From the NCBI RefSeq assembly GCF_003334785.1, contig NZ_QOWV01000001.1: DNA of 64,000 nucleotides. One strand, given 5' to 3'. The first letter of the stretch is position 1, and every line of letters starts with the position of its first letter. This document shows positions 21,713 to 32,894 of this stretch, one piece after another. The DNA comes from Escherichia coli. GTDB lineage: Bacteria; Pseudomonadota; Gammaproteobacteria; Enterobacterales; Enterobacteriaceae. The translations under genes were made by a program, and so were the position numbers. Under the pieces are notes generated by a model. The model had not been told where the DNA came from. It did not search any database and worked only from the letters and a program-made list of their open reading frames with translations.

Positions 21713-22360
21713 ATGAACTATCGTATTATTCCGGTCACCGCATTCTCCCAGAACTGTTCATTAATCTGGTGTGAACAAACCCGTCTGGCCGCACTGGTCG
21801 ATCCTGGCGGCGATGCGGAAAAAATCAAACAGGAAGTTGATGACAGCGGCCTGACACTGATGCAGATCCTGCTGACGCATGGTCATCTGGACCACGTTGG
21901 CGCAGCGGCGGAACTGGCGCAACATTACGGCGTGCCGGTTTTCGGCCCGGAAAAAGAAGATGAGTTCTGGCTGCAAGGCTTGCCTGCGCAAAGTCGTATG
22001 TTTGGTCTGGAAGAGTGCCAGCCGCTGACGCCAGATCGTTGGCTGAACGAAGGCGATACCATCAGCATAGGGAATGTGACTTTACAGGTGTTACATTGCC
22101 CTGGGCATACGCCGGGTCATGTCGTGTTTTTTGATGATCGGGCAAAGCTGCTGATTTCTGGCGATGTTATTTTCAAAGGCGGAGTAGGGCGCAGTGACTT
22201 CCCGCGTGGCGATCATAATCAACTGATTTCTTCAATCAAAGATAAATTGCTGCCACTGGGGGATGACGTGATATTTATTCCGGGTCACGGACCATTATCC
22301 ACACTTGGTTATGAACGCCTGCATAATCCCTTCCTGCAAGACGAAATGCCCGTCTGGTAA
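21713..22360 (+). CDS. gloC: metallo-beta-lactamase-fold hydrolase (hydroxyacylglutathione hydrolase GloC / YcbL)
   Basis: 215-aa ORF with THGHLDHVG zinc-binding motif. Confidence 0.85.
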
Positions 22361-22372
22361 GGCACATAAAAA

Positions 22373-22393
22373 AGCCCGCTTTTAATGCGGGCC
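22373..22393. terminator. hairpin agcccgc-ttttaat-gcgggcc flanked by A-run (candidate bidirectional terminator after gloC)
   Basis: Inverted repeat with aaaaaa on the 5' side (T-run on minus strand). Confidence 0.5.
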
Positions 22394-22423
22394 TGGATTT
22401 CTGGCAAAGTGCGCTTTGTTTAT

Positions 22424-22457
22424 GCCGGATGCGGCACGAGCGCCTTATCCGGCCTAC
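22424..22457. repeat. REP (repetitive extragenic palindromic) element
   Basis: gccggatgcggc...gccttatccggcctac, canonical REP consensus. Confidence 0.8.
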
Positions 22458-22492
22458 AAAATCGTGCAAATTCAAAATATTGCAGGGGACGC

Positions 22493-22521
22493 GTAGGCCT
22501 GATAAGCGTAGCGCATCAGGC
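22493..22521. repeat. REP element in inverted orientation (with the previous one forms a BIME-like unit)
   Basis: gtaggcctgataagcgtagcgcatcaggc, reverse-complement-like to the first REP. Confidence 0.75.
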
Positions 22522-22581
22522 AATGTTGCGTTTGTCATCAGTCTCAGCCCGCTTTTCAGCGGGCTTCATTGTTTTTAATGC

Positions 22582-23772
22582 TTACAGCACTGCCACAATC
22601 GCTTCGCACAGCGGAGCCATGTTATCTGGTGTCATCCCGGCCACATTTACGCGACCAGAAGCAACCGCATATACGCCAAACTCTTCGCGCAGACGCAGCA
22701 CTTGTTCTTTTGTCAGGCCACTGAAGGAGAACATGCCGTTCTGTTTGATGATAAAGCTGAAGTCGCGGTTTGCGCCTTTTTCCTGCAGCGTATTGACGAA
22801 CAACTGACGCATACGCTGAATACGCTGGCGCATATCAGTCAGCTCTTGTTCCCAAATCGCACGTAACGCATCGTTGCTCAGGATGGTGGCAACAACAGAA
22901 GCGCCGTGTGCTGGTGGGTTAGAGTAGTTAGCGCGAATCGCCGCTTTCATTTGGCTGAATGCGCGATCAACGGTTTCACTGTCGGCAGCAACCAGAGTAC
23001 AAGCGCCAACACGCTCGTTGTACAGGCCAAAGTTTTTAGAGTAGGAACTGGCAACAATCAGCTCTTTATGCATAGCCGCGAAAGCGCGCAGTCCTTCAGC
23101 ATCTTCTTCCAGACCACGGGCAAAACCCTGGTAAGCGAAGTCAAACAGCGGTAACCAGCCTTTCTCAACGGAGAGTTGTGCCAGTGTTTGCCATTGTTCC
23201 AGCGTAGGGTCGATACCGGTTGGGTTATGGCAGCAGCCATGGAACAGCACTACGTCGCCAGCCTGAGCTTCATTCAGGCTGTTAATCAGTGCATCGAAGT
23301 CAAGAGTGTGATTTTCCGCATCATAATAAGCGTATTCACGAACTTCCAGACCTGCAGAGTTAAAGACGCTCTTATGGTTCGGCCAGCTTGGGTTGCTCAC
23401 CCACACACGCTTAACGCTGGTATTTTTTGCCAGGAAATCGGCAGCCACGCGTAGTGCGCCAGTGCCCCCCGGAGTCTGTGCCGTGCGAGCACGTTTGTCA
23501 TTGATCAGGGCGCTACCTTTACCAAACAGCAGTTCCTGAGTGCAGCGACCAAATTCAGGGATGCCGTCAATGCCGAGGTAATTTTTGGTGGTTTCATTTT
23601 CGAGCAGATACTGTTCAGCCTTTTTCACGCTGGTCAGTACCGGGGTTTTGCCCGTCTCATCTTTATAGACACCAATCCCGAGGTTAATTTTGCCGGGACG
23701 TTCATCGGCACGAAACAGATCGGCCAGGCCCAGAATCGGGTCGGCAGGAGCGGCGGTAATGTTCTCAAACAT
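22582..23772 (-). CDS. aspC: aspartate aminotransferase
   Basis: 396-aa ORF; PLP-lysine motif [14 protein letters not shown]. Confidence 0.97.
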
Positions 23773-32106: not shown

Positions 32107-32894
32107 ACCGTGGCCTCCTTCAAATGATAAGCCGGGTTCCAGCGCAACCAGAGGCGCTCTAACAGCTGCGCGCTGACGTCAGCCAGTTTGCCGAGCAGGG
32201 CGTAAAGAATAATAGCGACTACCACCACGTCCGTTTGCAAAAACTCCCGCGCATTCATCGCCAGATAACCAATGCCTGAATTGGCAGAAATGGTTTCGGC
32301 AACAATCAGCGTCAGCCACATCAGGCCCAACGCAAAACGCACGCCGACCATAATTGAGGGCAGGGCACCAGGCAGGATCACATGGATAAACAGCGGTATG
32401 CCGGATAATCCATAGCTACGCGCCATCTCCACCAACCCGCGATCGATATTACGGATGCCATGCCAGGTGTTGATATAAATGGGGAATAGCGTACCGAGCG
32501 CCACCAGAAAGATTTTTGCGGATTCATCAATGCCAAACCACAAAATCACCAGCGGGATCAGCGCCAGATGCGGCACGTTGCGCAACATCTGAATTGAGGT
32601 ATCCAGCAGCCGTTCTCCCCAGCGAGATAGCCCGCTAATCAGTCCCAAAATCAACCCCAGCGATCCGCCAATTGAAAAGCCAATCAGCGCCCGCCAGGAG
32701 CTGATCGCCAGATGCTGCCACAGTTCGCCGCTGGCGGAGAGCGTCCAGAACGCCGTCACCACTCCTTCCGGTGAAGGCAAAATACGCGTCGACAGCCAGC
32801 CAACCGAGGAGGCCAGTTGCCACACCGCCACGATGCCCACCGGTAAAAACCAGGGGGCAACGCGCAATAACCACTTCTTCACTGGCGTTGCCAT
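32103..32894 (-). CDS. ssuC: aliphatic sulfonate ABC transporter permease
   Basis: 263-aa polytopic membrane protein from ATG at 32894; ATGA overlap with ssuB. Confidence 0.9.

Follow-up and report, generated by a model that had tools for sequence, protein, structure and literature searches.

The spacer between the convergent genes gloC and aspC of Escherichia coli holds two inverted REP sequences and two GC-rich hairpins, which raises the question of what kind of repeat this is, how it came to lie between the hairpins and what it does to the two genes. Catalogues of E. coli repeats have included BIME-1 since the early 1990s; the RefSeq feature table of strain MG1655 is without any repeat feature at the gloC-aspC spacer. 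We analysed a 64,000-nucleotide stretch of E. coli DNA (the window), in which the open reading frames (ORFs) around the spacer give the gene order ldtD-mepK-gloC, then convergent aspC-ompF; several E. coli chromosomes match this part with 100% identity. The spacer (22361-22581, 221 bp) runs from the gloC stop codon (22358-22360) to that of aspC (22582-22584, minus strand) and is likewise 221 bp long in MG1655, where a single base differs, in hairpin 1 (G in the window to T in MG1655 at window position 22389); an MG1655 coordinate minus 961,937 gives the window coordinate. The first-pass annotation had placed two REP elements and two hairpins in this spacer, which it put at 220 bp, and all four were confirmed by the REP pattern search and the terminator scan. 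The features of the locus are as follows.

21713-22360, plus strand: gloC (ycbL) coding sequence, the upstream convergent gene; a 215-aa ORF, annotated gloC in matching E. coli records
22373-22394, no strand assigned: hairpin 1, the left terminator copy, AGCCCGCTTTTAATGCGGGCCT; found by the minus-strand terminator scan at 22394-22372 and a direct repeat of 22546-22566
22395-22545, plus strand: complete BIME-1 (RIP/RIB), 151 bp; boundaries shared with other copies in the paralogue alignment
22395-22423, plus strand: left outer motif of the BIME-1; kept across loci; its partner in the long-hairpin fold is the right outer motif
22424-22457, plus strand: Y-type REP (palindromic unit), GCCGGATGCGGCACGAGCGCCTTATCCGGCCTAC; exact REP consensus, inverted repeat I1, partial naRNA4/REP325 match
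22458-22492, plus strand: L linker, 35 nt, with an IHF-type motif, ATTCAAAATATTG, at 22470-22482; ES036 match at 22458-22500, one mismatch to the IHF consensus
22493-22522, minus strand: Z1-type REP, inverted (plus strand GTAGGCCTGATAAGCGTAGCGCATCAGGCA); exact REP consensus on the minus strand, inverted repeats I2 and I3 with the Y REP
22523-22545, plus strand: right outer motif of the BIME-1, ATGTTGCGTTTGTCATCAGTCTC; kept across loci, with a hairpin copy directly after its right boundary
22546-22575, no strand assigned: hairpin 2, the right terminator copy, AGCCCGCTTTTCAGCGGGCT with the T-rich tail TCATTGTTTT; found by the plus-strand terminator scan
22582-23772, minus strand: aspC coding sequence, the downstream convergent gene; a 396-aa ORF, annotated aspC

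The classical REP pattern, GATGCG-N(4-14)-CTTATCMGGCCTAC, has two exact matches in the 64 kb, one at 22428-22457 on the plus strand and one at 22493-22517 on the minus strand, where none is expected by chance (100 shuffles); both inverted REPs of the earlier annotation are thereby borne out. Its term "REP/BIME cluster" was right as to the kind of repeat; the arrangement, however, is not a loose cluster but one ordinary, already catalogued full BIME-1 (RIP/RIB), made up of Y, L linker and Z1. When the best paralogues (at tkt-prohibitin and fepA-entD) were aligned, similarity reached past the REPs on both sides, and the Y and Z1 REPs, in inverted orientation, aligned base for base with other BIME-1 copies. 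The element ends in imperfect terminal inverted repeats (GGATTTCTGGCAAAG... and ...GTCATCAGTCTC) and sits between the stop codons of the two convergent genes. BIME-1 has been defined by Y plus Z1, a long conserved L linker, a frequent IHF site and occurrence in single copy (PMC3333891), with a length of about 140 bp (PMC1187871); here we found one non-tandem unit of 151 bp, as against the roughly 140 to 150 bp of a typical unit. Paralogous copies covering at least 80% of the block were present in every complete E. coli genome examined (5426/5426).

The gloC-aspC repeat has the same inverted Y and Z1 and the same long L linker with an IHF-type motif as the family described by Gilson (1991), Oppenheim (1993) and Boccard and Prentki (1993), as these works are summarized in PMC3333891 and PMC1187871. 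It is a regular member and differs only by a few private substitutions, namely, GGATTTCTGG at the left end, where others have AGATTGCTGA, and the Y loop CACGAG. In the minimum-free-energy fold of the spacer, Y pairs with Z1 and the outer motifs pair with each other, giving the single long hairpin typical of REPINs; the plus strand folds at -90.3 kcal/mol, compared to -68.0 +/- 4.4 in shuffled sequences (z = -5.1), and the minus strand gives z = -5.4. The BIME-1 at this locus is thus a known kind of element with no exceptional property. Two ORFs that cross the spacer (22275-22538 on the minus strand and 22385-22807 on the plus strand) consist of repeat DNA and were not taken as genes. Elsewhere in the window, 32396-32409 on the minus strand matches the REP foot with two mismatches (ATTATCCGGCATAC) and is either a degenerate REP or chance (0.42 such matches expected).

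The hairpins on either side of the element proved more informative. On the plus strand, 22546-22565 resembles a terminator, with 8 pairs (6 GC) and the tail TCATTGTTTT; on the minus strand the same holds for 22394-22372, with 8 pairs and the tail TTTTTATGTGC (T6). A U-tract is missing from hairpin 1 on the plus strand and from hairpin 2 on the minus strand, and the GC hairpin followed by a U-tract that marks an intrinsic terminator is therefore found only for hairpin 2 on the plus strand and hairpin 1 on the minus strand. Hairpins 1 and 2 repeat each other in direct orientation: they share an 11-nt exact repeat, AGCCCGCTTTT, within 21 to 22 nt that differ by 2 mismatches and 1 indel, so that AGCCCGCTTTTAATGCGGGCCT (22373-22394) and AGCCCGCTTTTCAGCGGGCTT (22546-22566) have about 19/22 positions in common. 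The ancestral upstream A-tract (22365-22372) was retained by the left copy and the T-tract by the right copy, and because the two tracts stayed on opposite sides, the hairpins score as terminators on different strands.

This arrangement is explained by the alleles that have no repeat. The spacer is filled in 2811 of the 5426 complete E. coli genomes and lacks the element in about 48%; a genome was called filled if its match covered 80% or more of a 451-bp query spanning the spacer, and the others matched over a span about 171 to 173 bp shorter. In strains Santai and AVS0362 the empty spacer is 49 to 50 bp long and has a single hairpin, ...CATAAAAA-AGCCCGCTTTTCAGCGGGCT-TCATTGTTTTT...; judged by its sequence, the empty allele is a classic predicted bidirectional terminator (A-tract, GC hairpin, T-tract). 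Spacers of 44 to 54 bp, each with one A-tract, hairpin and T-tract, were also found in Escherichia marmotae, in two other enterobacterial contigs and in Enterobacter kobei. Since these outgroups have the short form, it is ancestral, and the filled allele was ruled out as the ancestral state. Hairpin 1 is not present in empty alleles, hairpin 2 is the sole hairpin in empty alleles and outgroups, and the filled allele exceeds the empty one by 173 bp, made up of the 151-bp element and the second hairpin copy. The two GC hairpins had been noted earlier as bracketing the REPs, which is correct as to position; they are not independent structures, however, but both derive from a single ancestral bidirectional terminator, of which a second copy was made as the BIME-1 inserted. 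The duplication is direct rather than inverted because the loops keep their polarity; an inverted duplication of the palindrome was ruled out at gloC-aspC and at four other loci (L009, L017, L020 and L031), where loops and stem asymmetries have the same orientation in both copies. Position 22389, G in the window and in most close relatives and T in MG1655, lies in the 3' arm of hairpin 1, where the MG1655 base creates a mismatch; this stem mismatch suggests that the left copy is under weak constraint.

The same architecture recurs at other BIME-1 loci. A scan for the linker motif in one genome per species returned 40 loci, nearly all from Escherichia species, plus Pseudocitrobacter. Where both ends could be located, the element measured exactly 151 bp, from (A/G)GATTG... 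to ...CAGTCTC, in 17 of 21 copies (10 of 13 distinct loci). At tkt-prohibitin the 151-bp unit of the filled allele lies between two copies of AAGGGCCGCGAAAGCGGCCCTT, each flank reading AAGGGCCGC(A/G)AA(T/A)GCGGCCCTT; the empty allele of strain GPEC1209 is 173 bp shorter and has one hairpin copy and then a T-tract. Hairpin direct repeats flank the element at 11 of the 13 distinct full-length loci from Escherichia spp. in the scan, with flank-to-flank local alignment scores of 10 to 24, compared to a cross-locus null of 5.9 +/- 1.7; one high null value of 18 came from the pair L005/L047, which have similar hairpins and may be orthologous. The flanking repeats are 16 to 30 bp long and differ in sequence from locus to locus, and each falls on a strong local hairpin (-10 to -23 kcal/mol). 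They start at base 0 to 1 of the right flank in 10 of 11 loci (base 7 at the truncated L043) and end 0 to 3 nt before the left end of the element; a T-tract often lies just beyond the right copy and an A-tract just ahead of the left one. Hairpin-flanked copies include L005, L009, L012, L017, L023, L027, L031, L042, L043 and L047, from E. coli, E. albertii, E. whittamii and other Escherichia. The exceptions are the fepA-entD copy, which has no flanking repeat, and the Pseudocitrobacter copy, which also lies just after a stop codon.

On this evidence, we put the probability at about 0.85 that the BIME-1 inserted into a single bidirectional terminator of gloC and aspC and in doing so duplicated the whole 21- to 22-bp hairpin. 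Two other histories of the hairpins were weighed. That the T-tract of each hairpin lies on a different strand might suggest two independent, pre-existing terminators, one per gene, between which the BIME-1 landed without any duplication; this is barely credible, however, given that a single hairpin bears both tracts in empty alleles and outgroups, that the two hairpins share 11 exact nucleotides and about 19/22 positions overall, and that the same pattern appears with locus-specific sequences at 11/13 loci. It is also conceivable that the flanking repeats arose after insertion, by local slippage or gene conversion, and were selected to restore a terminator on each side, as both copies are usable terminators on opposite strands and selection for termination can be imagined. 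We regard such a later origin as very improbable, although slightly less so than independent terminators: the repeats adjoin the ends of the element within 0 to 3 nt at 10/11 loci in several species, and in each of the two pairs of filled and empty alleles the difference is exactly 173 bp, the element and one copy of the hairpin, a precision that independent events would not produce.

Insertion into a shared terminator does not by itself account for the present distribution of the filled allele. The E. albertii type strain (L010, NBRC 107761) and the divergent E. coli strain E69 (L019) carry an orthologous filled allele with identical private substitutions, whereas E. marmotae (L049) and many E. 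coli lineages (L001/L002) are empty. One clean insertion into a recent common ancestor does not explain this patchiness, which calls for old polymorphism, transfer by recombination or repeated precise loss of the element between its direct repeats. Within E. coli, secondary precise losses may have occurred. The 1997 abstract of Bachellier et al. reportedly refers to "excisions of a whole BIME-1". Presence and absence of BIME-1 among isolates has already been reported, according to the account of Bachellier (1997) given in PMC1187871. The first-pass annotation did not extend to the direct repetition of the hairpins, the 151-bp unit, the minus-strand T-tract of hairpin 1 or the absence of the block from about half of E. 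coli.

The arrival of the element can be outlined as follows. gloC and aspC originally shared one bidirectional intrinsic terminator; a 151-bp nonautonomous REP doublet inserted into it, the hairpin being duplicated with one copy on each side, and the left copy kept the A-tract (the U-tract for the minus strand) and the right copy the T-tract. Mobilization may have been due to the REP-associated Y1 transposase (TnpA-REP/RAYT), and a duplication of hairpin length would result if cutting was staggered between the two feet of an extruded target hairpin or cruciform and the gaps were then filled. TnpA-REP binds REPs with a GTAG foot on single-stranded DNA and cuts at nearby C/T dinucleotides (the slash marking the cut), and most E. 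coli strains have a single tnpA-REP locus (PMC3333891). Both 3' ends of the 151-bp unit carry TC/T; the tnpA-REP gene itself is absent from the 64-kb window. The link between TnpA-REP and the duplication is nevertheless weak, because known Y1 transposition of the IS200/IS605 type makes no target duplication.

Like REPINs mobilized by RAYT/TnpA-REP (Bertels and Rainey 2011; Nunvar 2010, PMC2817692; Ton-Hoang 2012, PMC3333891), the gloC-aspC element consists of two inverted REPs and a spacer that form one long hairpin, with GTAG feet and, at both ends, the C/T dinucleotide that TnpA-REP cleaves in vitro. In the models for REPINs and BIMEs, movement is by single-strand "peel and paste" or by rolling amplification and leaves no target duplication, whereas here direct repeats of 16 to 30 bp are found. 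MITEs (reviewed in PMC3184786) are likewise small and noncoding, with imperfect terminal inverted repeats, target direct repeats and a long stem-loop; however, their target duplications are short and of fixed length, whereas the repeats flanking BIME-1 are long (16 to 30 bp), variable and coincident with a hairpin, and the element does not qualify as a MITE. In comparison with the bidirectional intrinsic terminators reproduced in Table 16 of bioRxiv 10.64898/2026.03.23.713779, in which hairpin 2 is listed, the empty allele would be a textbook case, whereas the filled allele has its A-tract and T-tract on two hairpin copies 173 bp apart.

The hairpin-sized repeats at 11/13 loci and the two filled and empty pairs constrain how BIME-1 gets in. 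Whether BIME-1 as a family inserts specifically at intrinsic-terminator hairpins, through duplication of a whole hairpin whose extent (16 to 30 bp) is set by structure, is a broader proposition that we advance only tentatively and regard as doubtful in this general form. Were it true, each insertion would split a bidirectional terminator into two one-directional halves and place the repeat inside a 3' untranslated region (3'UTR), which would conflict with the duplication-free single-strand model borrowed from IS200/IS605. Full-text literature searches returned no description of hairpin duplication at BIME-1 ends, the papers likeliest to contain one being those of the 1990s that lie outside such searches. 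If true and undescribed, this would be the first sequence-level footprint of the mechanism by which REP, BIME or REPIN elements insert in vivo. The hairpin-sized target duplication is possibly an underdescribed clue to BIME-1 insertion and may merit systematic follow-up.

The consequences for the two transcripts can be read from published MG1655 data. Table 16 (row 69) of bioRxiv 10.64898/2026.03.23.713779 gives overlapping convergent transcripts for ycbK:ycbL:aspC at MG1655 984478-984506, which is 22541-22569 in the window, in both log and stationary phase, with the listed hairpin AGCCCGCU....AGCGGGCU. This overlap covers hairpin 2 only, and both convergent 3' ends flank it; therefore, the ycbK-ycbL (gloC) operon mRNA crosses hairpin 1 and the entire BIME-1 before ending at hairpin 2. 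By these 3'-end data, the filled allele therefore adds about 173 nt of highly structured 3'UTR, with the BIME-1 inside, to gloC, whereas the stable mRNA of aspC reaches five nucleotides beyond hairpin 2 and leaves the BIME-1 out; the aspC end reflects either termination without a U-tract or exonuclease trimming. An arrangement of crossed terminators, in which both mRNAs traverse the BIME-1 to reach their own U-tract hairpin, is accordingly true for gloC only, the overlap being confined to hairpin 2. In the filled allele the aspC side of the formerly shared terminator has lost its U-tract. In the window strain, hairpin 1 may act as a back-up minus-strand terminator that catches aspC read-through before gloC; in MG1655 its stem is mismatched.

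Two functional readings of the repeat have to be set against these transcript ends. The earlier proposal, that this is a typical site of REP-mediated 3'-end stabilization, taken as the claim that the REP pair mainly stabilizes the 3' ends of both the gloC and the aspC mRNA by blocking 3'-to-5' exonucleases, is unlikely. REP stem-loops are established exonuclease barriers (background in PMC6061677), REP-containing convergent pairs are more highly expressed genome-wide and the gloC transcript does include the BIME-1, as the 3'-end mapping that had been recommended as a check shows; however, the mapped 3' ends lie at hairpin 2, so that gloC ends at a terminator hairpin rather than at a REP, and the stable aspC mRNA contains no REP. 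Moreover, the element is missing from about 48% of E. coli genomes and from all outgroups, so that half of the species manages without a BIME-1 at this locus. Stabilization by the REPs is plausible for gloC only, within whose 3'UTR the REP stem-loops and hairpin 1 may, as RNA, act as internal barriers to 3' exonucleases. The filled and empty gloC-aspC alleles form a natural pair for testing the effect of BIME-1 on expression. The other reading, that the linker is a discrete small RNA gene (Rfam RF02751, ES036/CssrF) with its own function, draws on an ES036 match at 22458-22500 that scores 53 bits against a gathering threshold of 37.6. It is improbable, and more so than stabilization: the model also matches 7/7 other loci that contain a BIME-1 and 0/2 empty loci, as expected of a repeat linker rather than a unique gene, no promoter-like site was found in the gloC-aspC spacer, and the 43-nt matching stretch lies inside the gloC 3'UTR.

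Accordingly, the ES036 family appears to model a BIME-1 linker that is present many times per genome and not one small RNA gene; linkers matched by it were seen at window 22458-22500 and at L005, L006, L010, L011, L019, L029 and L030. ES036 was the sole above-threshold Rfam match in the window besides an unrelated PyrD leader (RF02373, 42796-42869, 97.9 bits), which is expected in this region of E. coli. The Y REP partially matches naRNA4 (CssrE, RF02564), a family derived from REP325, at 29.7 against a gathering score of 59.5, and is not a member; a Trp_leader match (25.8 versus 41) is merely hairpin 1 plus its T-tract, and the remaining Rfam matches are below threshold.

The L linker, which is kept in all family members aligned, probably binds IHF as DNA. 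Its motif ATTCAAAATATTG matches the consensus WATCAANNNNTTR with 1 mismatch; however, the window contains 59 matches to the IHF consensus, compared to 55.5 expected, and the motif, which alone is not above chance, was dropped as independent evidence. The case for an IHF site therefore rests on family identity, IHF binding having been shown for BIME-1 by Boccard and Prentki (1993) and Oppenheim (1993), as cited in PMC3333891.

The scan also returned several loci of another kind. Tandem BIME-1 units, at odds with the usual single-copy description of the family, occur at L047 (Escherichia sp. MOD1-EC7003), where a hairpin copy lies between the units, and at L040 (9480-9740). A typical Escherichia BIME-1 on a 262-bp contig assigned to Desulfosporosinus sp. 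OT (L013) is probably assembly contamination, and a match to the linker pattern in a Nitrospira metagenome-assembled genome (L039) lies in unrelated sequence and looks like chance.

Finally, the gloC-aspC BIME-1 has itself been a target for insertion. In E. coli MS6193 (NZ_CP047405.1), IS621, a member of the IS110 family, occupies positions 3240-4530 of locus L003, which places the insertion between 22496 and 22497 of the window, at the GTAG foot of the Z1 REP, with the dinucleotide AG (CT on the other strand) at both junctions. This allele was present in at least two genomes of the sample (H28 and H29). IS621 is the "bridge RNA" recombinase reported to target REP sequences, and the MS6193 insertion fits that preference.
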